Positions 214 through 8,238 of a stretch of 10,076 bases of DNA are shown piece after piece. Source of the stretch: a bacterium (GTDB lineage Bacteria > BMS3Abin14); the NCBI GenBank assembly GCA_020349685.1, contig CP070698.1, positions 1,227,522-1,237,597 of the forward strand. Direction: 5' to 3'. Positions within the stretch are counted from its first letter, which is position 1, and every line of letters starts with the position of its first letter. The notes under the pieces were generated by a model that worked only from the letters and a program-made list of their open reading frames with translations, was not told where the DNA came from and ran no database searches. Position numbers and translations under genes: made by a program.

Positions 214-990
214 CTAAATGTACGGCATCAGCAGCGCCGATCTCGAAAGATCCTCCCTCCCCTGCCGTACCGCTGCCTTGGCGAGGAACCGGCGCATGTC
301 CAGGCTGGCCATGCCAGGCTGGAGCTCTCCGGTCAGCCGCTCATAATCGGCCACTTCTTCCGGCGTGGCTTCCTCCTGGAGATATTCCCATATGGTTTCG
401 TAGGCGATGGCTGGTGCGCGGTCGTCCGGGTCCTCGGAAAAGGTTTCCTCAAGGATCAGATCGAACAGCATGAAGACCGATGCCTTCCCTCTCCCCTGGA
501 GGGTCTCGGTCAGGGAGCGGTACCTGCTGTACGATCGCTCCATGATAGTGAACCGGTAGATCCTCCAGAGGGCCTGGAGGATGTCCAGCTCGGTGTGTAC
601 GATGAGGACAGTGGATATCTCATGGAGGCATGTAAATTCACCTGGATCCCCGCTTTCGGGCAAGGGGACCCGGCCTGCGGGTCTGTCCTTTAACCACTCG
701 ACCTCCTTCAGTACATCCTCGGCAGTCACATCGGGCTCGTTCCAGTGTTCAGGATCGATATCCCGGCGGTCGATGAGAGTGGCGTGGGGGATGGCACGGA
801 GGATCATTTCCTCCACCAGCCTGCGATGCCTGGCGTAAAGCTGTCCCCTCCGCCCGTTGTAGCGGAAAGCGTCCGGGTGCTCCATGGGCTCATCGGTACC
901 CAGTGAATTGAAGAGCTTGTGCAGAAAATCGTGCTCCTGCACGATGATATCGTCGCTGAGGAATTTGGGATGGACAAGGTGGATTTTCAT
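214..990 (-). CDS. Pyrimidine-dimer DNA glycosylase / endonuclease V-like protein (T4 DenV, Pyr_excise family) with a ~120-aa acidic C-terminal extension
   Basis: 258-aa ORF starting at ATG 990 and ending at TAG. GGAG lies 8 nt upstream (rc of 992-1008 = AAAAAACGGAGTTTTTTT-ATG). The N-terminus MKIHLVHPKFLSDDIIVQEHDFLHKLF...FRYNGRRGQLYARHRRLVEEMILRAIPH aligns by eye with T4 endoV ([26 protein letters not shown]...[25 protein letters not shown]) and with bacterial Pyr_excise proteins (MRLWSLHPKYLD...). The C-terminal half is Glu/Asp-rich and unassigned. Confidence 0.55.
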   Translation of the reverse strand: MKIHLVHPKFLSDDIIVQEHDFLHKLFNSLGTDEPMEHPDAFRYNGRRGQLYARHRRLVEEMILRAIPHATLIDRRDIDPEHWNEPDVTAEDVLKEVEWLKDRPAGRVPLPESGDPGEFTCLHEISTVLIVHTELDILQALWRIYRFTIMERSYSRYRSLTETLQGRGKASVFMLFDLILEETFSEDPDDRAPAIAYETIWEYLQEEATPEEVADYERLTGELQPGMASLDMRRFLAKAAVRQGREDLSRSALLMPYI

Positions 991-1229: not shown

Positions 1230-2033
1230 CTACCGCCGCCGCCCCCGCGGTCTCCTTGGACCCGGACGGACGGTGACGTTCCCGCTCTGGCGTGCCTCCC
1301 TTTCCTGCGAGATCTCCTTCTCCACGGCCTTCTCCAGCGTGTCCTTCTGGAATTTCAGCTCCTCTTTCTGTTTTCTCAGCCACTCCTCCTGGTCGTCGGC
1401 CTGATTTCCTTTGGTTTGTCCCTTTTGCGGCCTTCGCCCCTTGTCCGCCATAGCCTTGGCGTCGGCGGATGCGCCCTGTGCCCTGTCCACATGGCGCCTC
1501 CCGGCCGGCCGGTCCTTGACCCGGTCAGGGAAGGACCTGACTTCAAGGACCTTGTTCCCCTCCCGAGCCATCCCCTCATCCCCCGAAGGAGACCCAAACC
1601 GGGTCAGGAAAAAGATGCCCATGAGAACCAGAAAAACACCCGCGCCCGCGTACAGAACCTGAAGGCCCGCCAGGTCCCGGGACATCACCAGTCCCAGGAA
1701 GGCCAGGGGCAGGATGATGGAAACGAAGGTCAGCACCTTTGTCCTCAGCTGGAAAAGGTTCTTTACCGTCATCCACTGGGGCGCCGGAATGTCCACCACG
1801 AAAAGGGATCCTATGGCCACAGCCAGAAAGTACAGGAAGGCCGCTCTGATGAAATAGGGCACGACGGTGATCCCGCTGCCCGGATCCATGACGAAACCGC
1901 CCGTTACAGCAAGATCCGCCAGCCGCACGAGGCCTCGTCCCAGGGATCCCAGCGCCAGAAGGGCGAGAGCCAGGGCTGCCAGGGCGAAGAGGTACCGCAG
2001 ACCTGCCATAAAGGAACCGAATGCGCGCATCAT
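1230..2033 (-). CDS. Integral membrane protein (4 predicted TM helices) with a Lys/Glu/Arg-rich coiled-coil-like C-terminal tail; third gene of the nfeD-stomatin operon
   Basis: 267-aa ORF with ATGATG at 2033/2030. It begins 25 nt after the stomatin stop (2058) on the same strand. Hydrophobic segments are LRYLFALAALALALLALGSLG, PYFIRAAFLYFLAVAIGSLFVV, VLTFVSIILPLAFLGLVM and VLYAGAGVFLVLMGIFFL. The C-terminus QEEWLRKQKEELKFQKDTLEKAVEKEISQEREARQ...RPRGRRR is highly charged. The SD is weak, so translational coupling is possible. Confidence 0.7.
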   Translation of the reverse strand: MMRAFGSFMAGLRYLFALAALALALLALGSLGRGLVRLADLAVTGGFVMDPGSGITVVPYFIRAAFLYFLAVAIGSLFVVDIPAPQWMTVKNLFQLRTKVLTFVSIILPLAFLGLVMSRDLAGLQVLYAGAGVFLVLMGIFFLTRFGSPSGDEGMAREGNKVLEVRSFPDRVKDRPAGRRHVDRAQGASADAKAMADKGRRPQKGQTKGNQADDQEEWLRKQKEELKFQKDTLEKAVEKEISQEREARQSGNVTVRPGPRRPRGRRR

Positions 2034-2057: not shown

Positions 2058-2840
2058 CTACTTGTCGTCTTCTCCGCCTGCCTTGTTCAGCACCTTCATG
2101 AAGCCGGTTACAAGGTCCATGGGGATCGGGAAGAGAGTCGTTGAATTATTCTCCGTGGCAATCTCCCTGAGCGTCTGCAGGTATCTGAGCTGGATGGCCT
2201 GGGAGTTGGTGGAGAGGACGTCGGCCGCCATTGCCAGTTTTTCGGATGCCTGGTGCTCACCCTCAGCGGCGATGACCTTGGCACGCCGTTCCCTCTCGGC
2301 TTCTGCCTGTTTGGCCATGGCCCGCTGCATCTCCGTGGGAAGGTCCACGTGCTTGATCTCCACCGTGGTCACCTTGACGCCCCAGGGATCGGTAGCCTGA
2401 TCCAGGATCTCCTGAAGCTGGTGGTTGATCTTCTCCCGCTCGGAGAGGAGATCGTCCAGTTCCACCTGGCCCAGGACGCTTCTGAGGGTCGTCTGGGCCA
2501 GCTGGCTTGTCGCGTAGTAGAAATCCTCCACCTCGACAATAGCCCTGGACGGGTCCATGACCCGGAAGTAGACCACCGCGTTGACCTTCACCGAGACGTT
2601 GTCCCTGGTGATGATGTCCTGGGGGGGGACATCCATGGTAACGAGCCGCAGGCTCACCCTCACAGCTCGCTCGATGAAGATGATCACCAGGGTGATCCCG
2701 GGACCCCTTGAACCTACCAGGCGGCCGAGGCGAAACACGACCAGCCTCTCATATTCGGTTACGATCTTGATACTGGCCAAAACGGCAAGGAAGACGAGGA
2801 CAAGAGCAATGACCAAAGGATTTGCAAACACGAAAGGCAT
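2058..2840 (-). CDS. Stomatin-like SPFH/band-7 family protein (prokaryotic stomatin, YbbK/QmcA/PH1511-like)
   Basis: 260-aa ORF starting at ATG 2840 with GGGGG SD (rc: GAAAAGGGGGTATAAA-ATG). It has an N-terminal TM helix and then [16 protein letters not shown]...[82 protein letters not shown]...[40 protein letters not shown], a textbook stomatin/SPFH core plus Ala/Glu-rich coiled coil. Confidence 0.92.
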
Positions 2841-2907: not shown

Positions 2908-4350
2908 TCATGATTTCTCCTCTTTTTCGACGCCGACCTGAAGCACCATCCCATCCAGACCCAGAACGACGACTTGGTCCCCTATGCTGATGGGCTCCTT
3001 GCTCGAAGCGGACCAGATCTCACCTCGAACCCTGACTTTCCCGGCGTTCTTGATGTCCGTGGTTGCGACACCGCGCTCCCCGATCATCCCCTCCGCGCCT
3101 GTTGTCGGTTTTCTGCTCTGGCTCCTGATAACCAGTGTCAATCCCACAACGATGAAAAGAGCGGTCGTGAGGGTAAACGCCAGGATGAGAGACAAGGAAA
3201 CTTTCAGATACGGTTCCCCCGTCTCAAAGAGCATCATGCTCCCGAGAAACAGGGAAATGGCTCCACCCACGGAAAGCATACCATAGGAAACGACTTTCAC
3301 CTCCAGGATAAAGAGGACGATGGCCAGGATAATAAGGAGAAATCCGGCGTAATTGATGGGAAGGACCTGGAACGAGAAAAAAGCCAGGACGAGGAAGATC
3401 CCCCCGAGAACCCCCGGCAGGATGACTCCCGGGTTCGCCAGTTCGAAGAAAAGACCGTAGATCCCCAGCATCATGAGGATATAGGCGATGTTGGGGTCGG
3501 ACAGGGAGGACAGGATGCGGTGCCTGAAGCCCATGAGCCGATCCATCACCTCGGCACCCTTGACGGCCAGCACGACCTCCTCACCTGAGATCTTTACTTT
3601 CCTTCCATCGACAGCCGCGAGAAGGTCGTCCACGTCTTCCGCTATAAGATCGATCACGTTGAGTTCGAGAGCCTCGGTCTCTGTCACCGACACGCTTTCC
3701 CTGACGGCTTTTTCAGCCCATTCGGCGTTGCGGCCCTGTTTTTCGGCAATGGACTTTGCGAAAGCCACCGTGTCGTTGATGACCTTCTGCGCCATCACAC
3801 TCTCATCGGTTTCTGCAGGTTTTTTCTCCCCCTCTCCCTCTCGCCCCGTCTCCCCCTCGGGTTTCCCCTCCTCTCCCTCTCCTTTATCCTTTTCCTCCTC
3901 CTTTTTCGGGCTGAAAGGGTTCCCCCCCCCAATATTGACCGGGTGGGCCGCTCCTATATTGGTCCCGGGAGCCATGGCTGCCACGTGGGCCGACATGGTG
4001 ATGAACACCCCGGCCGAAGCCGCCCTGGCGCCGGGAGGGGCGACGTGAACAGCGACAGGGACCTGGGAACCGAGGATGCTTTTTACGATCTCCCGGGTGG
4101 ATGTCATCAGCCCGCCAGGGGTGTCGAGCTGGATGATGATCAGATCCAGCTTTTGTTCGGCAGCCTTTTCGATGTTCTTCTGGATGTAGTCGGCGCTCAC
4201 CGGGCTGATGGGGCCGTCAACGACGATCCTTGCCACCACGGGACGGCCGGCCCCGGCCGTGTCTTCCTCGGCCGCCGTAAGGGACGAGGCCAGCGGGACA
4301 GCCAGCGTAAGGATTAGAAAAAGGGTCAAACGCCAGGATCTTATTGTCAT
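2908..4350 (-). CDS. Long-form NfeD / STOPP: membrane-bound ClpP-class serine protease with multi-TM region and C-terminal NfeD OB-fold domain
   Basis: 480-aa ORF starting at ATG 4350 with GGGAGG SD (rc: TTTTTGGGAGGTAATCAGAA-ATG). It has a signal/TM N-terminus and a ClpP-like domain (VVARIVVDGPISPVSADYIQKNIEKAAEQ...IIIQLDTPGGLMTSTREIV...VAPPGARAASAGVFITMSAHVAAMAPGTNIGAAHPV). Five or so TM helices follow, then the C-terminal beta-barrel motif GAEGMIGERGVATTDI...GKVRVRGEIWSASS...ISIGDQVVVLGLDGMVLQV. It sits directly upstream of the stomatin gene, which is the conserved nfeD-stomatin operon. It contains an unusual acidic low-complexity insert (see below). Confidence 0.9.
   Translation of the reverse strand: MTIRSWRLTLFLILTLAVPLASSLTAAEEDTAGAGRPVVARIVVDGPISPVSADYIQKNIEKAAEQKLDLIIIQLDTPGGLMTSTREIVKSILGSQVPVAVHVAPPGARAASAGVFITMSAHVAAMAPGTNIGAAHPVNIGGGNPFSPKKEEEKDKGEGEEGKPEGETGREGEGEKKPAETDESVMAQKVINDTVAFAKSIAEKQGRNAEWAEKAVRESVSVTETEALELNVIDLIAEDVDDLLAAVDGRKVKISGEEVVLAVKGAEVMDRLMGFRHRILSSLSDPNIAYILMMLGIYGLFFELANPGVILPGVLGGIFLVLAFFSFQVLPINYAGFLLIILAIVLFILEVKVVSYGMLSVGGAISLFLGSMMLFETGEPYLKVSLSLILAFTLTTALFIVVGLTLVIRSQSRKPTTGAEGMIGERGVATTDIKNAGKVRVRGEIWSASSKEPISIGDQVVVLGLDGMVLQVGVEKEEKS
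3820..3931. repeat. ~90-nt homopyrimidine (C/T) tract on the + strand followed by a C9 homopolymer (3922-3930), inside the nfeD coding sequence
   Basis: Read directly: ttttttctccccctctccctctcgccccgtctccccctcgggtttcccctcctctccctctcctttatccttttcctcctcctttttcggg...tccccccccc. On the coding strand this is a GA-rich tract encoding KKEEEKDKGEGEEGKPEGETGREGEGEKKPAETDE, and G9 encoding GGG in ...NIGGGNPF.... Confidence 0.7.
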
Positions 4351-4560
4351 TTCTGATTACCTCCCAAAAAGTCTCCTCGAATCATTTTGAGAGCCGGTCA
4401 CGCCGAGGCGTGATCCTCCCAGCGGCATGACCGTTCGGCAAGCTCACGGCCCTGAGCTTCGTCGAAAGGTCGAGCGAGCGGAGCAGACCCGCCCGGCTGG
4501 ACCCACAGCCCTGGTAAAACGTTACCCACAACTCCAGCACGTTGAAGTTTCTCAAGTCCG

Positions 4561-5871
4561 TCAGATCTTTACTCCCAGGCTCGAGATCGGGACGGCAAGC
4601 CCCCGCGGCCCCACGAGATCGGGACCTCTTTTCCTGAAAGGAACCAGAAGCAGGGACTGCTTTGTCCCTTTTCTGGGAAATCTGCTTCTCGAGCTTGTAT
4701 TTGCGACGACATCGGCCATTTCGTCCGCCCCGTCTGCCGGCAGGCCCACCGGGAAAGGCTTCAACCGGAGTCTGTCCTGGTAGGGAATATTGCCTGCCTT
4801 GAAATCAGCATGGTAGTACCGCGCTGAGAGATTGTAAAGAAGGCGCGGCGAACGGACTTTGAAAGCGGGCACATAAAGGTTCCTGCTGTCCGAGCGGCGA
4901 AGCCAGAAGGGCATAAACAGTGTGGAAGGGTCCTTGAAGGAATCCGGACTGCCCGCCCAGAGGCATTCCTTTTCCCTCAACTCACCCCTGGAGGTCTCCC
5001 ATCCCCTGGCGCAGGAGTGGCAGAACCTGAGGTGGGCGGTGGGATCCGGGTCCAGGTCCCCAGCGCATTCCGGACAGATAAGGGAGGCCAGTTTAAGGCG
5101 CGTTTCACCCGGTGACCTGCTCTCCTTAAGACCGAGGTTGTCCAAGAGCGTCTCCATCTCCTCGTGCCTGAGCTGCCTGATGAGGCCGCCTCCGACGGCA
5201 TCGATGAGCAAAAGCCTGATGTTGTTCCCCTCCCGGATCTCTACAAGCGACAAGGGAAAATAGAGGACCGAATTCTTTTCCCACAGCCGGAACATCTTTT
5301 CCTCCACGACCCTCAAGCCTGGATCGGGCATGCCGTCGAAAAAATCGTCCTCCATCTTCCGGCTGTGTACCTCCCTCTCCTTTTGAACGGGAGCGAAGGG
5401 CAGCTTTCCGGCATTTTCCCGGGTCGCCAGCGAGAGGTTGAGCGACTGGGTCCTGAACCCCGGGGAAAAGAGACCAGGCGACAGGTCCATGTGGGCCGGA
5501 CGCATGAGGTCTACCGGGCGAGTCAAAAGCCTCGTCTGGCTGGTCCTGTCCGGACCGGTCCCTGTCTGGTGACCGACCACCCACCGGATGGCGTGTCCCG
5601 TGGTCCTGTAAAAAGGGAAATAGAACGGGATGACCGATCGGAGGAGAGGCGGTTTCCAACCGTTCTTCATGGCGATGCTCGTGACTTCGTGAGCCATTTC
5701 CCGAACATCTATCTTGGGCTTTATGAGGAAGTTAAGCCAGGCTGCCCCGGTTCCCAGGACCATGAGCCCCGCACCGCAGTATCTGCACCTGGTGCCGGTG
5801 GCTTCCTGGTCGAAAACCACCTCACCGCCGCATTGAGGGCAGTGATGACTGACGTAACAGGGGCGGTTCAC
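4561..5871 (-). CDS. Hypothetical protein with two Cys4 zinc ribbons and no recognisable conserved domain; distal gene of the 4-gene cluster
   Basis: 436-aa ORF starting at GTG 5871 (rc of cac 5869-5871), 15 nt after the Band_7_1 stop (TAG 5887-5889). The N-terminal ribbon is CPQCGGEVVFDQEATGTRCRYCG and the second is CPECAGDLDPDPTAHLRFCHSCARGW. Third positions are G/C-biased, consistent with coding. The SD is only a weak AGGAA ~13 nt upstream. The overlapping + strand 624-aa ORF is judged an antisense artefact. Confidence 0.65.
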   Translation of the reverse strand: MNRPCYVSHHCPQCGGEVVFDQEATGTRCRYCGAGLMVLGTGAAWLNFLIKPKIDVREMAHEVTSIAMKNGWKPPLLRSVIPFYFPFYRTTGHAIRWVVGHQTGTGPDRTSQTRLLTRPVDLMRPAHMDLSPGLFSPGFRTQSLNLSLATRENAGKLPFAPVQKEREVHSRKMEDDFFDGMPDPGLRVVEEKMFRLWEKNSVLYFPLSLVEIREGNNIRLLLIDAVGGGLIRQLRHEEMETLLDNLGLKESRSPGETRLKLASLICPECAGDLDPDPTAHLRFCHSCARGWETSRGELREKECLWAGSPDSFKDPSTLFMPFWLRRSDSRNLYVPAFKVRSPRLLYNLSARYYHADFKAGNIPYQDRLRLKPFPVGLPADGADEMADVVANTSSRSRFPRKGTKQSLLLVPFRKRGPDLVGPRGLAVPISSLGVKI

Positions 5872-5886
5872 TGTCAGGACACATTC

Positions 5887-7014
5887 CTATTCGATCTTTT
5901 CTCCGCAATGGAGACAGAAACGGGCTCCTTCGGGGACCTTGCGGCCGCATTTCGTACAGACAGGCTTGCTCTTCTTCACCTCGTGGCCGCACTCGTGGCA
6001 GAAGCGCGCATCGGAGGGAAGATCCTTTCCACAGGAGCCGCAAACCTGTCCCCGGACGACAGGAGTTCCGCATCGGAAACAGAAGCGGGCGTCGGCCGGC
6101 AGTTCGGCCTGGCACTGCGGGCACGAGTCCCCCCCGGTCGGCCCCGAAGGGGGTTTGCCCTCCAGGGTCGAGCGGAGAAAAGAAGGCACCATCATCCCCA
6201 GCCCGGCGCCCAACCCCAGCCCCATTCCGGATTCGGCGGTGGAGGGAGCTCCTCCCTCCCCCGCCCCCGCGGCGTCGCCCATGAACTGGGCGGCCTTGAA
6301 GCGGAGGTAATCCTTCTCGCCGACGGCGGTCATACTTCCTCTTTCATCGATGATCTTCTGGACATTATCTGGCGGCGTGATGGACTGTATAATGAGATCC
6401 TTCAGTTCCACACCGTATTTGAGGAACTCCTCCCTGATGCGCGCCTTGGCCGCCGCGCCCAGCTCTTCGTAAACCTGCGCCAGGTCGAGGATGGTGTCCA
6501 GATTCTCTCCGAGAAGGTCGTTGATGCGGGAGATGATGACCGCCCGCAGATAGTCGGAGATCTCATCGGTGGTGTAGACCCCCTGGGTGCCGACCAGGAC
6601 GTTGATGAACAGCATGGGCTGGACCACCCTGATGGTGTAGTTGCCGTGGGCCCGGAGCCTGACCATCCCGAGCTCCTTGTCCCTGAAGGCCACGGGGTCC
6701 CTCGTCCCCCAGGTCAGGTTCGTAAAGGTCTTCATGGAAGCGTAGTATACCGCCACCCTGAAGGGGCTCTTGAAACCAAAGGGCAGGCTGAGGGCTTTTG
6801 TGAGAAGGGGCAGGTTCTGGGTCGTCAGGGTGTGACGGCCGGGGCCCAGAACGTCCAGGGCGCGCCCGTCGCGGAAAAAGACAGCCGCCTGGTTCTCGTT
6901 AACGACGAGCTGGGCGCCGAATTTGATCTCGCCGGTTCCCTCGGGGGGGACCCGGTGGACCATTTCGGTGCCGGTGTGATCCACCCATTCCAGAACCTCT
7001 ATGAATTCACTCAA
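5887..7014 (-). CDS. SPFH-domain protein of the Band_7_1 type (PF13421-like, YdjI-like) with Gly-rich linker and three C-terminal zinc ribbons
   Basis: 375-aa ORF. The N-terminus MSEFIEVLEWVDHTGTEMVHRVPPEGTGEIKFGAQLVVNENQAAVFFRDGRALDVLGPGRHTLTTQNLPLL matches the characteristic Band_7_1 start (compare B. subtilis YdjI, MGLFDFIKKQFIDVIEW...WRFP...GAQLTVRESQAAIF...GPGRYTL). After the linker GDAAGAGEGGAPSTAESGMGLGLGAGLG come three ribbons: CPQCQAELPADARFCFRCG, CGSCGKDLPSDARFCHECG and CTKCGRKVPEGARFCLHCG. The start codon is TTG (rc of caa 7012-7014), preceded by a strong SD CCAGGAGGCGGACA-TTG that lies inside the end of the upstream gene (8-nt overlap). Confidence 0.85.
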   Translation of the reverse strand: MSEFIEVLEWVDHTGTEMVHRVPPEGTGEIKFGAQLVVNENQAAVFFRDGRALDVLGPGRHTLTTQNLPLLTKALSLPFGFKSPFRVAVYYASMKTFTNLTWGTRDPVAFRDKELGMVRLRAHGNYTIRVVQPMLFINVLVGTQGVYTTDEISDYLRAVIISRINDLLGENLDTILDLAQVYEELGAAAKARIREEFLKYGVELKDLIIQSITPPDNVQKIIDERGSMTAVGEKDYLRFKAAQFMGDAAGAGEGGAPSTAESGMGLGLGAGLGMMVPSFLRSTLEGKPPSGPTGGDSCPQCQAELPADARFCFRCGTPVVRGQVCGSCGKDLPSDARFCHECGHEVKKSKPVCTKCGRKVPEGARFCLHCGEKIE

Positions 7015-7522
7015 TGTCCGCCTCCTGGCTTTCCATGATCCTCTTCCGGCCCTCCAACGCGTTCCTCAGATCCTTGACAGCCTCCTCGAGCCCTGATGTC
7101 CAGTCGATGTCGGAACCGATGTGGTCCACGTCACCGACGTATTCGGGCAACGCCTGCGCGGCGCTCAGCAGACCCAGATCGTACTCATAGAGCTTTTCCA
7201 GATCCTCCAGAGAGATCCCCTCCCGGTCGAACCAACCCGCGTAACCGTAGGCGGCAAAGCGCAGTTCATCTTCCATGCGCTCCAGCTTTGTAACCAGGCG
7301 TTCGAGGTTTCCTATTAAACGGAGGTTCTTCATCCCCCCCGACCTCGACAGATCATTCATGACCTCGGAGATCAGTTCCCGGCACCTGGCAACCTCCTCG
7401 GCAGCCCTGATCCTGACCGCCTTGTCCGCGTCACGCCTCTTCTCCCGGTCCTGGTAACCCCCTATACCCGGTATGATCCGCGCGATCTTTTCCAGTAGCC
7501 CTGCCACCTTGGGCTGCGTCAT
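7007..7522 (-). CDS. Hypothetical cytoplasmic protein, 171 aa, predicted helical/coiled-coil; second gene of the 4-gene cluster
   Basis: ATG at 7522-7520 overlaps the upstream stop in an ATGA arrangement (tcat at 7519-7522), which implies translational coupling. Stop TGA at 7007-7009. The sequence MTQPKVAGLLEKIARIIPGIGGYQDREKRRDADKAVRIRAAEEVARCRELISEVMNDL...EGRKRIMESQEADIE has no recognisable family. It contains a G7 run at 7334-7340. Confidence 0.6.
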   Translation of the reverse strand: MTQPKVAGLLEKIARIIPGIGGYQDREKRRDADKAVRIRAAEEVARCRELISEVMNDLSRSGGMKNLRLIGNLERLVTKLERMEDELRFAAYGYAGWFDREGISLEDLEKLYEYDLGLLSAAQALPEYVGDVDHIGSDIDWTSGLEEAVKDLRNALEGRKRIMESQEADIE

Positions 7523-8082
7523 GTTTTCCGCCTGTCTGCCGGTCCGGCCTTGATCCTCACTTTCCCCTCCTCGCTCACGACCTTGAAGGCGACCTTCTCG
7601 CTGCCATATTTTTCCCTTATTGTTTGGGCCTGCTGCTCCAGGGCGGTTCGGACCTTCTCCATGTCGGGGGTCTTACCGTTTCCGAGACGCTGGTATTCCC
7701 GGGTGAGAGCGGAAAAGAGCTTGTCCATCTCTCCCTTGTCGGTGTTGCTGGTGGAGACCTCGAAAACACCGGGAAGCTGCTCCTGGGGGGCGGCAGCCTG
7801 GGTGACCGGCGTGGCTCTCCTCACCTGTTTCCTGCCCTCTTCGAGCTCCCTTAAGTTCCTCTGCCAGTACTGGAGATAAGTGTTGTAGCGGGATATGGCC
7901 TGCTGGGTGCGAAAGCGCAGGGCCGTGTTCGTCATGACGGTGGAGGTGAGGGTACGGACCTCCCTTGCGACCTTGTCGGCGAGCTTGTCCGGAGGCCGGC
8001 GTTCGACCCCCGCGAAATACTGATCGTAGGCTGCCTTGAGCTTGTTTATGTCCTGTTCGAGTTTGCGCACTTTTTCTTCCAT
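7519..8082 (-). CDS. Hypothetical protein, 187 aa, charged/helical N-terminus; first gene of the 4-gene cluster
   Basis: ATG at 8082-8080 (rc of cat) with weak SD. Stop at 7519-7521. The protein MEEKVRKLEQDINKLKAAYDQYFAGVERRPPDKLADKVAREV...KYGSEKVAFKVVSEEGKVRIKAGPADRRKT has no family recognisable by eye. It lies directly downstream of an AT-rich divergent promoter region. Confidence 0.6.
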   Translation of the reverse strand: MEEKVRKLEQDINKLKAAYDQYFAGVERRPPDKLADKVAREVRTLTSTVMTNTALRFRTQQAISRYNTYLQYWQRNLRELEEGRKQVRRATPVTQAAAPQEQLPGVFEVSTSNTDKGEMDKLFSALTREYQRLGNGKTPDMEKVRTALEQQAQTIREKYGSEKVAFKVVSEEGKVRIKAGPADRRKT

Positions 8083-8127
8083 TTATTACCGGTCTGCCCT
8101 TTCTCTCCCCACCATACAGGGAAAAAT

Positions 8128-8238
8128 GATAACAGAGGGGATAAGGGAAATAAAGTAATAGTAACAACTAGTGCCAAGCGATAAGAGATAGGAGATGGGG
8201 ATTGGTCCTCCAGGCTTATCTCTTCAGCACTTATCTCC
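8128..8238. promoter_or_regulatory. Cluster of GATAAG-type motifs in direct and inverted orientation (putative operator) in the divergent intergenic region
   Basis: GATAAC (8128-8133), GGATAAGGGA (8139-8148), CGATAAGAGATAGGAGAT (8180-8197), GCTTATCTCTTC (8214-8225; rc GAAGAGATAAGC) and ACTTATCTCC (8229-8238; rc GGAGATAAGT). AAGAGATA (8183-8190) and TATCTCTT (8217-8224) form a perfect 8-bp inverted repeat ~26 bp apart. The region is AT-rich. Confidence 0.45.

Follow-up and report, generated by a model that had tools for sequence, protein, structure and literature searches.

Organization of the locus

The window, by which we mean the whole stretch of 10,076 nucleotides that was analyzed, carries four minus-strand open reading frames, here called g1 to g4, followed by an nfeD gene and a stomatin gene. 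The features are as follows.

8124 to 8137, minus strand: CTCTGTTATCATTT block with the extended -10-like TGTTATCAT, ~40 nt upstream of the g1 start
7519 to 8082, minus strand: g1, first gene of the operon, 187 aa; soluble, helical towards its N terminus and ending in MXAN_5187_C_dom
7007 to 7522, minus strand: g2, 171 aa; soluble helical bundle, clade-specific
5887 to 7014, minus strand: g3, 375 aa, TTG start; cytosolic SPFH protein of the YdjI/SamI type, with Band_7_1, a Gly/Met-rich linker and three Zn ribbons
6328 to 6936, minus strand: SPFH (Band_7_1) domain of g3, aa 27-229, PF13421
5893 to 6141, minus strand: triple Zn-ribbon tail of g3, aa 292-374, six CxxC motifs
4561 to 5871, minus strand: g4, 436 aa, GTG start
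5107 to 5871, minus strand: N-terminal module of g4, aa 1-255; Zn ribbon and alpha/beta domain, homologous to the YdjG/SamG ZnR2-plus-core
4561 to 5106, minus strand: C-terminal module of g4, aa 256-436 and stop codon; second copy of the Zn ribbon and alpha/beta domain, no TM anchor
4351 to 4560, minus strand: spacer of 210 nt between g4 and nfeD, species-specific
2908 to 4350, minus strand: nfeD, NfeD1b type, with N-terminal protease-like, membrane and C-terminal partner-binding domains (PF25145, PF24961, PF01957)
2058 to 2840, minus strand: stomatin-type Band_7 protein, membrane-anchored at its N terminus (PF01145, 133.7 bits)

The four reading frames lie at exactly the coordinates given in the first-pass annotation, and all four are conserved at the protein level. 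Dozens of homologues with 50-99% identity were found for each, and gene order was kept in nine loci of the window's clade, indicating that g1 to g4 are real genes and not chance open reading frames. The four genes are complete in seven of these loci; the other two are truncated contigs, in which the order holds for the genes present. The junctions were also as read before: an ATGA overlap between g1 and g2 (7519-7522), an 8-nt overlap between g2 and g3 (7007-7014) with AGGAGG 6 nt upstream of the g3 TTG start, and a 15-nt gap between g3 and g4 (5872-5886). These overlaps and the short gap uphold the proposal that g1 to g4 form a single tightly coupled operon, and the coupling from g1 through g4 recurs in several relatives of the window. 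TM segments were found in NfeD and stomatin and in none of g1, g2, g3 and g4 (19-aa window, Kyte-Doolittle hydropathy of at least 1.6, the criterion given for g3).

In the window's clade the operon lies downstream of a conserved promoter-like element. TCTG-TATCATTT (12 of 14 columns) is invariant in the alignment of the glmU-g1 intergenic regions from six lineages, which are otherwise ~41% identical, and it occurs once in the window, with none expected by chance. We infer that the CTCTGTTATCATTT block is a candidate promoter of the operon.

g3 is an SPFH protein of the SamI type

The assignment of g3 to the Band_7_1 SPFH proteins with three Zn ribbons was borne out. g3 matches PF13421 with 214 bits (gathering cut-off, 24), and its six CxxC motifs, at aa 298-370, make up three Zn ribbons according to both Pfam and the CxxC count. 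The same six motifs are present in 32 of the 34 g3 homologues that are paired with a g4-type partner. BLASTP aligned Bacillus subtilis YdjI/SamI with g3 at E 4e-21 over aa 2-320, co-linear across the SPFH domain, the linker and the Zn ribbon. g3 has no intrinsic membrane anchor, with no 19-aa window reaching a hydropathy of 1.6. These data show that the predicted architecture of g3, in which a low-complexity linker connects the SPFH domain to three Zn ribbons at the C terminus, is that of SamI.

g4 is a duplicated SamG-like partner

As noted before, g4 carries two Zn ribbons of the form CxxC...CxxC (C11/14/29/32 and C266/269/284/287), and these cysteines are invariant in 57 diverse relatives. 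The view that g4 matches nothing proved wrong, however: it belongs to a family of at least 2272 clusters at 50% identity, for which there is no curated Pfam or NCBIfam model, and which is remotely homologous to YdjG. In hhalign, the g4 family was compared with a YdjG family of seven sequences (Bacillus, Enterococcus, Vibrio, Comamonas, Paracoccus, Tsukamurella and Pseudorhodobacter) and gave Prob 97.6% (E 3.6e-12) and Prob 97.9% (E 5e-13). The YdjG family matched the N-terminal half of g4 with Prob 98.1% and the C-terminal half with Prob 95.6% (E 1.1e-8), and the two halves matched each other with Prob 96.4-98.3%, consistent with an internal duplication. The detectable homology covers a Zn ribbon followed by a YpeB/NTF2-like core, as in YdjG/SamG. 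A C-terminal hydrophobic or TM segment was found neither in the window g4 nor in 149 family representatives; it is clear in five of the seven YdjG-family sequences, the exceptions being the B. subtilis tail, which lies below the threshold, and the truncated Pseudorhodobacter sequence. Taken together, the profile comparisons show that g4, a predicted soluble protein, contains the SamG core module (a Zn ribbon and a YpeB/PepSY-like alpha/beta domain) twice in tandem.

The g3-g4 pair is the conserved unit

The first-pass annotation treated the four genes as the unit. Instead, the g3-g4 pair is what recurs: in 59 loci, from Desulfobacterota, Nitrospirota and other groups, g4 is preceded by a g3 homologue in the same orientation, with overlapping genes in 37 and a gap of 0-30 nt in 13 (together 50 of 59). 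The flanking genes vary among loci and are unrelated housekeeping genes. The four-gene order is kept within the window's clade, and beyond that clade the pair persists, g1 and g2 being confined to the clade. No SamH/TPM or pspA gene was found among the conserved neighbors of the 59 loci, and no window protein matched PspA_IM30 or TPM. On sequence grounds, g3-g4 is a PspA-less, anchorless variant of the SamI/SamG type, and the two proteins are remote relatives of YdjI and YdjG.

g1 and g2 are restricted to the window's clade

The distribution of g1 and g2 is limited to the small clade of the window; among the 91 g1 homologues, one clade accounts for nearly all, and those at 36-38% identity show the arrangement glmS-glmU <> g1 -> patatin, with the SPFH gene absent. 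The C-terminal 40 aa of g1 match MXAN_5187_C_dom (NCBIfam NF041621; 38.8 bits, cut-off 30). In g2 the motifs PGxxGYQDRExRR and GYAGWFD are invariant, and the AF2 model is a compact helical bundle (pLDDT 83.7, pTM 0.81), so that the label "coiled-coil" given to the two proteins was only partly accurate. The earlier statement that the module bears no PspA signature was confirmed by profile searches: g1 and g2 had no similarity to PspA_IM30/Snf7 in Pfam (E up to 1) or, in profile searches of the PDB (E up to 10), to PspA/Vipp1/ESCRT-III chains of known structure, and hhalign against B. subtilis PspA gave Prob below 1%.

The pair is linked to NfeD-stomatin genes in one clade

The NfeD-stomatin genes had been described as a separate, adjoining operon. 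We found that nfeD follows g4 in all nine clade loci and that in four of them (L001, L002, L010 and L014) the two genes overlap by 4 nt at the g4 stop codon, which places the NfeD-stomatin pair in the same operon. The 210-nt spacer between g4 and nfeD is shared by the window and the near-identical L008 alone. Stomatin, whose TM segment spans aa 1-31, follows nfeD in eight of the nine loci; L001 has a truncated NfeD and no stomatin. Judged from gene order and junctions, g1, g2, the g3-g4 pair and NfeD-stomatin form one operon of at least six genes in the window's clade, and the linkage of a soluble SPFH protein to NfeD-stomatin was seen in this clade only. Some 50 lineages with the anchorless g3-g4 pair have no nfeD-stomatin linkage.

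Proposed function and alternatives

We consider it reasonably likely that the core of the operon is a two-gene SPFH unit related to SamI/SamG, with a putative anchorless scaffold-adaptor role. By analogy with B. subtilis, g3 would form a sub-membrane scaffold by oligomerizing via its SPFH domain, g4 would serve it as a stoichiometric adaptor or regulator that probably makes contact through Zn ribbons, and the unit may act in membrane or envelope homeostasis. Because g4 is anchorless, membrane attachment must come from elsewhere; the co-transcribed NfeD and stomatin would be obvious candidates in the window's clade. g1 and g2 may be lineage-specific accessory or client proteins rather than ESCRT-III analogues.

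A more far-reaching reading, which we regard as rather unlikely, is that all six proteins form one machine in which a soluble g3 assembly and its duplicated adaptor g4 dock onto a membrane-embedded stomatin/NfeD cage and g1 and g2 are a non-ESCRT-III effector of membrane repair or remodelling; if true, it would connect two different SPFH systems both physically and functionally, a link not described before. It is doubtful, and a little more so, that g1 to g4 are a novel self-contained module in which g1 and g2 replace PspA/ESCRT-III as the remodelling effector recruited by the SPFH protein. The translational coupling of g1-g2-g3-g4 in the window and several relatives, the soluble, helical nature of g1 and g2, and the recruitment of the helical effector PspA by the B. 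subtilis SamI homologue (PMC8581546) speak for such a replacement.

That the PepSY/YpeB-like modules of g4 regulate the NfeD1b protease domain, and hence stomatin processing, with g3 as a second substrate or scaffold, seems improbable to us. The PepSY/YpeB-like domain type is known from peptidase propeptides and YpeB.

SPFH and NfeD proteins are found in some defense contexts, and g1 and g2 are narrowly distributed, both of which would suit an anti-phage or other conflict system with the SPFH protein as membrane sensor or effector. The defense-associated complex envisaged earlier is nevertheless highly improbable: PADLOC-DB gave no signature for g1 to g4 (nothing better than E 0.0076, and no match for g2 and g3), PHROG matched only Zn-ribbon and SPFH fragments, g4 is absent from plasmids and g1 and g2 from viral contigs, the neighbors are housekeeping genes (glmU, murB, dnaE, cinA and an MltG-like gene) and not defense islands, and there is no nuclease, NTPase or other effector domain. 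Equally hard to credit is that the Zn-ribbon proteins are nucleic acid-binding regulators (TFIIB-, RpoP- or S27e-like ribbons) with an incidental SPFH link: the g4 ribbons do weakly match Zn_Ribbon_TF, RpoP, S27e and L37ae, and JGI annotations of g4 homologues follow these matches, but they span only the ~30-aa ribbons and fall under curated cut-offs, the other ~370 aa of g4 are homologous to the YdjG core, and the link to an SPFH gene, strictly kept in 59 loci, is no coincidence.

SPFH proteins are universal, and their mechanisms are poorly understood. To our knowledge, B. subtilis SamGHI/PspA is the only studied Band_7_1 system, and it has been treated as a Firmicute peculiarity. Our comparisons show the SPFH and YdjG-like pair to be a widespread two-gene unit independent of PspA. 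They also allow many proteins so far called "hypothetical" to be annotated, a large subfamily of at least 2272 clusters (50% identity) without a curated model, in which a soluble, internally duplicated partner has replaced the membrane-anchored one; this replacement goes along with a tail of three Zn ribbons on the SPFH protein. In one uncultured lineage, the soluble SPFH unit has been wired into one operon with a classical NfeD-stomatin pair. The scaffold-anchoring partner, the Zn-ribbon ligands and any cooperation between two SPFH systems are handles for experiments.

Comparison with known systems

In B. subtilis, the membrane-stress operon pspA-ydjGHI (pspA-samGHI) (PMC8581546; bioRxiv 10.64898/2026.02.06.704340; PMC11237479) encodes SamG and SamH, which recruit the cytosolic SPFH protein SamI; SamI in turn organizes PspA foci (PMC8581546; bioRxiv 10.64898/2026.02.06.704340), recruiting PspA to the membrane, and affects membrane fluidity (PMC8581546). 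The loose parallel drawn earlier with this operon stands as real homology for g3 (YdjI, E 4e-21) and g4 (YdjG, hhalign 97.6-98.1%) and fails for g1 and g2, two of the four genes, which lack a homologous counterpart. g3 is a full-length homologue of YdjI/SamI, with Band_7_1, linker and Zn ribbon and likewise anchorless; g4 has the Zn ribbon and YpeB-like core of YdjG/SamG; and in both operons the SPFH gene lies next to the YdjG-like gene and points in the same direction. On the other hand, the window operon has neither pspA nor the TPM-domain ydjH. g4 is built as (ZnR + core) x 2 without a C-terminal TM anchor, whereas YdjG has a single core and two N-terminal ribbons; YdjI has one Zn ribbon and g3 three; ydjG precedes ydjI, whereas in the window the SPFH gene precedes its partner; and the window pair is coupled to NfeD-stomatin and two unrelated helical proteins. 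Because g4 differs from SamG and there is no SamH/TPM or pspA gene, the B. subtilis mechanism is not directly transferable.

g1 and g2 resemble PspA/IM30/Vipp1/ESCRT-III proteins in being small, soluble, largely helical and encoded with an SPFH protein, as is B. subtilis pspA, but they share no detectable sequence or profile similarity with them.

Similar in layout are pairs of a Band_7_1 protein and a TM-anchored YdjG-like protein ("TFIIB-type zinc ribbon-containing protein") on plasmids and chromids of Proteobacteria, Actinomycetota and Enterococcus. A canonical YdjG homologue lies directly downstream of a Band_7_1 gene in all five annotated plasmid regions examined (Vibrio, Comamonas, Enterococcus, Paracoccus and Tsukamurella), and in the unannotated Pseudorhodobacter record the Band_7_1 and YdjG-like BLAST matches are adjacent. 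Like g3-g4, these are two-gene units with the SPFH gene first, often only a few nucleotides apart, that stand alone without pspA. Their YdjG-like partners, unlike g4, contain the core module once, together with two Zn ribbons at the N terminus and a TM helix at the C terminus, and their SPFH proteins have non-Zn-ribbon tails, or one or two ribbons in Firmicutes, rather than the three of g3.

NfeD-stomatin operons are known, for example Pyrococcus PH1510/PH1511. The window genes at 2908-4350 and 2058-2840 are a canonical NfeD1b and stomatin pair of this kind, and differ from such operons in being joined in one operon with a second, soluble SPFH system.

Gene layout and junctions

The minus strand of the window, which comes from an uncultured lineage, carries eight co-directional ORFs, with glmU divergent from them. 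The four genes under study are listed in operon order:

7519-8082, minus strand: g1, 187 aa
7007-7522, minus strand: g2, 171 aa
5887-7014, minus strand: g3, 375 aa, TTG start
4561-5871, minus strand: g4, 436 aa, GTG start

The g1/g2 junction is an ATGA overlap, g2 and g3 overlap by 8 nt with an AGGAGG 6 nt 5' of the g3 TTG start, and a 15-nt gap precedes the GTG start of g4. The first-pass annotation had claimed these coordinates, overlaps and gap, and all were borne out on the sequence. All four proteins have numerous homologues (50-99% identity), indicating that g1-g4 are genuine genes, and the order g1-g2-g3-g4-nfeD is retained among relatives. Terminator-like matches within the operon all fall in coding sequence and are fewer than expected by chance; one is a palindrome coding for the first Zn ribbon of g4. 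No typical transmembrane hydrophobic segment was found in g1, g2, g3 or g4; such segments are present in NfeD, stomatin and a downstream 267-aa protein. An Rfam search gave nothing relevant.

The g3-g4 pair is the conserved unit

g3 matched Band_7_1 (PF13421) at 214 bits and also carries three Zn ribbons. It aligned over its full length, linker and ribbon included, with B. subtilis-type YdjI, also named SamI (E 4e-21, 23% identity). A scan with the g4 alignment across GTDB, one genome for each species, yielded 58 loci, and all window proteins were compared by tblastn with every fetched locus. In distant lineages, g3 homologues showed 41-51% identity and g4 homologues 20-29%, mostly 20-26%. A g3 homologue lies upstream of a g4 homologue on the same strand in Desulfobacterales, Syntrophobacterales, Syntrophorhabdus, Desulfovibrionaceae, Desulfomicrobiaceae and Thermodesulfovibrio/Nitrospirota. 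Because simple greedy ORF calling gave spurious antisense ORFs in GC-rich loci, adjacency was scored from tblastn matches and stop-to-start distances. By this measure, 37 of the 59 loci having both genes show an overlap of the g3 stop with the g4 start, and in another 13 the two lie 0-30 nt apart.

The genes flanking the pair vary by lineage and are of housekeeping type (MltG-like, HD-GYP, DnaE, HlyD, MurB, CinA). Homologues of g1, g2, nfeD and stomatin were found by tblastn only in the window's clade (L001, L002, L008-L015), and profile HMMs of g1 and g2, searched over every stop-to-stop ORF in every locus, gave no matches outside it. The four-gene module proposed in the first-pass annotation is thus replaced, as a conserved unit, by the g3-g4 pair. 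The genes for a soluble SPFH protein of the SamI type and its soluble, duplicated partner of the SamG type are shown to be obligatorily linked, in most cases with translational coupling.

Remote homology of g4 to YdjG/SamG

In Pfam and NCBIfam, g4 gave sub-threshold Zn-ribbon matches only, and an exact-sequence look-up found no match, probably because of the GTG start. The g4 alignment contains eight invariant Cys, making two ribbons, and conserved PFW, PAF and PF motifs. Its N-terminal and C-terminal halves aligned with each other by hhalign (Prob 96.4%; 98.3%, E 1.9e-14 for the broader family), indicating that g4 is one module duplicated in tandem, a Zn ribbon with an alpha/beta domain. The AF2 model of g4 is of usable quality (pLDDT 80.6, pTM 0.79). 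One could also read the Zn-ribbon proteins as nucleic-acid-binding regulators, a reading that is less well supported. PDB profile searches with g1, g2 and g4 returned Zn-ribbon matches or noise only.

The SPFH partner of YdjG has been described as a band-7 protein with a C-terminal ZnR (Ravi et al.). The published ydjG primer sequence led us to a metagenome contig with a pspA-ydjGHI locus of B. subtilis type. Since similarity between g4 and the lone B. subtilis YdjG sequence was confined to the ribbons, we built a seven-member YdjG-family alignment from homologues gathered on plasmids and chromids, with six regions fetched. In profile-profile comparison, this family matched the broad g4 family at Prob 97.6% (E 3.6e-12, 215 columns) and the close g4 family at Prob 97.9% (E 5e-13); the aligned span covers g4 residues 8-235 and YdjG residues 53-309, and the two g4 halves matched separately (98.1% and 95.6%). 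A clear C-terminal TM helix is present in five of the seven YdjG-family sequences and was found neither in g4 nor in 149 g4-family representatives. These profiles, at odds with the earlier view that g4 matches nothing recognised, show g4 to be a remote YdjG/SamG homologue of other architecture: its module is duplicated, and the C-terminal TM helix is absent.

When 1.84 billion cluster representatives were searched exhaustively with HMMER, 2272 proteins of the g4 family passed E <= 1e-3; of these, 941 also passed E <= 1e-10 and 471 passed E <= 1e-30. The 150 strongest of the 2272 matches are mostly ~370-520 aa long (range 365-565), and nearly all cover most of the profile. Among 57 diverse members, Zn-ribbon matches in Pfam/NCBIfam were only sporadic; the family is large and has no curated model in either database, so that a sizeable set of hypothetical proteins gains a useful annotation. 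No g4 matches were found on plasmids.

Three loci deserve separate mention. L003 (10001-11521) encodes a 506-aa family member, P0050, with no adjoining Band_7_1 gene, an exception to the pair rule; rhodanese and DoxX/MauE genes come after it. L038, a Dehalococcoidia MAG contig, has two separate matches to the g4 C-terminal half (1497-2243 and 3019-3747, ~0.8 kb between them), which could represent single-module forms of the family, split or in tandem. A second, 414-aa ORF in L004 was considered as a g4 paralogue and ruled out, as it shows no similarity.

SPFH genes paired with anchored YdjG homologues

A Band_7_1 SPFH gene is directly followed by the gene for a canonical, TM-anchored YdjG homologue in all five annotated regions from plasmids or chromids (Vibrio, Comamonas, Enterococcus, Paracoccus, Tsukamurella), and in the unannotated Pseudorhodobacter record the SPFH and YdjG-like BLAST matches adjoin. 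No pspA was found next to the pairs in these six regions, and a TPM/YdjH gene occurs in Enterococcus only. The pairing of SPFH and YdjG-like proteins is general.

Six CxxC motifs, or three ribbons, are present in 32 of 34 g3 homologues having g4-type partners; YdjI has one tail ribbon, the Enterococcus protein two, and the SPFH proteins that accompany anchored YdjG-like proteins in Proteobacteria and Actinobacteria (Vibrio, Paracoccus, Tsukamurella, Comamonas) none. Judged from these sequences, the type of C-terminal tail on the SPFH protein seems to follow partner type. Within the plasmid and chromid loci (L070-L075), the SPFH proteins that have no ribbon terminate in small domains of other kinds: the C-terminal tail is W-rich in the Vibrio, Paracoccus and Tsukamurella proteins, and the Comamonas protein is annotated "SPFH and helix-turn-helix".

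Extent of the operon in the window's clade

The following features lie downstream of g4:

4351-4560: g4-nfeD spacer, 210 nt, non-coding, only in the window's species and the near-identical L008
2908-4350, minus strand: nfeD
2058-2840, minus strand: stomatin gene
1230-2033, minus strand: 267-aa protein, several predicted TM segments, long Lys/Glu/Arg-rich tail, no family match
214-990, minus strand: 258-aa protein, DUF1722, with a sub-threshold Pyr_excise match

nfeD follows g4 in nine of nine clade loci, with stomatin next in eight, and overlaps the g4 stop codon by 4 nt in four genomes (L001, L002, L010, L014). This overlap and conserved order indicate that nfeD-stomatin lies within the transcription unit of g4 in the window's lineage, and not in the separate, adjacent canonical operon described earlier. 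Within the spacer is a short hairpin, TCACGC-CTCG-GCGTGA, that lacks a T-tract. Several clade relatives (L002, L010-L014) likewise have the 267-aa and 258-aa genes after stomatin, and the operon may therefore reach further downstream.

In L001 (11314-12302; complete MAG CP070682.1), NfeD is only 329 aa long, without the C-terminal partner-binding domain, and its gene is not followed by one for stomatin; at least one clade member thus shows partial degradation of the NfeD-stomatin arm. The NfeD-stomatin linkage is missing in the other ~50 lineages having the g3-g4 pair. A rival reading, in which g4 would regulate the NfeD protease, is less well supported.

g1, g2 and a putative promoter

The last 40 residues of g1 pass NCBIfam MXAN_5187_C_dom (38.8 bits, cut-off 30), and g2 matches LIMLP_15305_fam (NCBIfam) weakly, far under the cut-off; a literature search on MXAN_5187 and LIMLP_15305 yielded no functional information. 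Both are helical proteins, and the first-pass annotation saw them as possible PspA stand-ins. This too is less well supported. Their profiles found no PspA/ESCRT-III chains in PDB at E up to 10, neither could be aligned with PspA of B. subtilis (Prob under 1%), and g1 and g2 did not align with each other. A defence system is likewise less well supported; PADLOC and PHROGs searches gave nothing relevant, and viral contigs contained no g1 or g2 relatives.

The only g1 homologues beyond the clade (36-38% identity, MXAN_5187_C_dom proteins) are Desulfuromonadales-like and likewise divergent from glmU-glmS, with a patatin-like phospholipase 5-32 nt downstream in place of g2 or an SPFH gene:

L007, 6091-7792: g1-patatin locus
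L076, 3564-5275: g1-patatin locus
L077, 1194-2905: g1-patatin locus

Since g1 occupies the same place there without g2 or SPFH genes, it looks like an ancestral glmU neighbour, the remaining genes of the operon having been assembled after it in the window's clade.

Upstream of g1 lies one conserved element:

8124-8137, minus strand: 14-nt block CTCTGTTATCATTT, with the extended -10-like TGTTATCAT

Twelve of its 14 columns are invariant across six lineages, in intergenic regions otherwise ~41% identical. The block is probably the operon promoter; a simple sigma-70 scan did not detect it.

Proposed mechanism and relation to known systems

In B. subtilis, SamG/SamH recruit the cytosolic SamI, and PspA foci and normal membrane fluidity need SamI (PMC8581546; bioRxiv 2026.02.06.704340). 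On this precedent, g3 would form an SPFH oligomer beneath the membrane, with g4 as its adaptor or regulator. Because g4 has lost the anchor, membrane attachment would have to come from another component, NfeD and stomatin being candidates in the window's clade; g1 and g2 may be clade-specific accessories or clients.

The first-pass observations on ORFs and junctions stand, and its interpretation survives in part. The operon is clade-specific; besides g3-g4 it includes a classical NfeD-stomatin pair and two helical proteins that are uncharacterised, and it allows a connection between two SPFH systems to be tested. The g3-g4 pair is not a new category; it is a new architectural form of the known, little-studied SamI/SamG-type SPFH module, differing from that of B. 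subtilis in having no PspA, no membrane anchor and an internal duplication.
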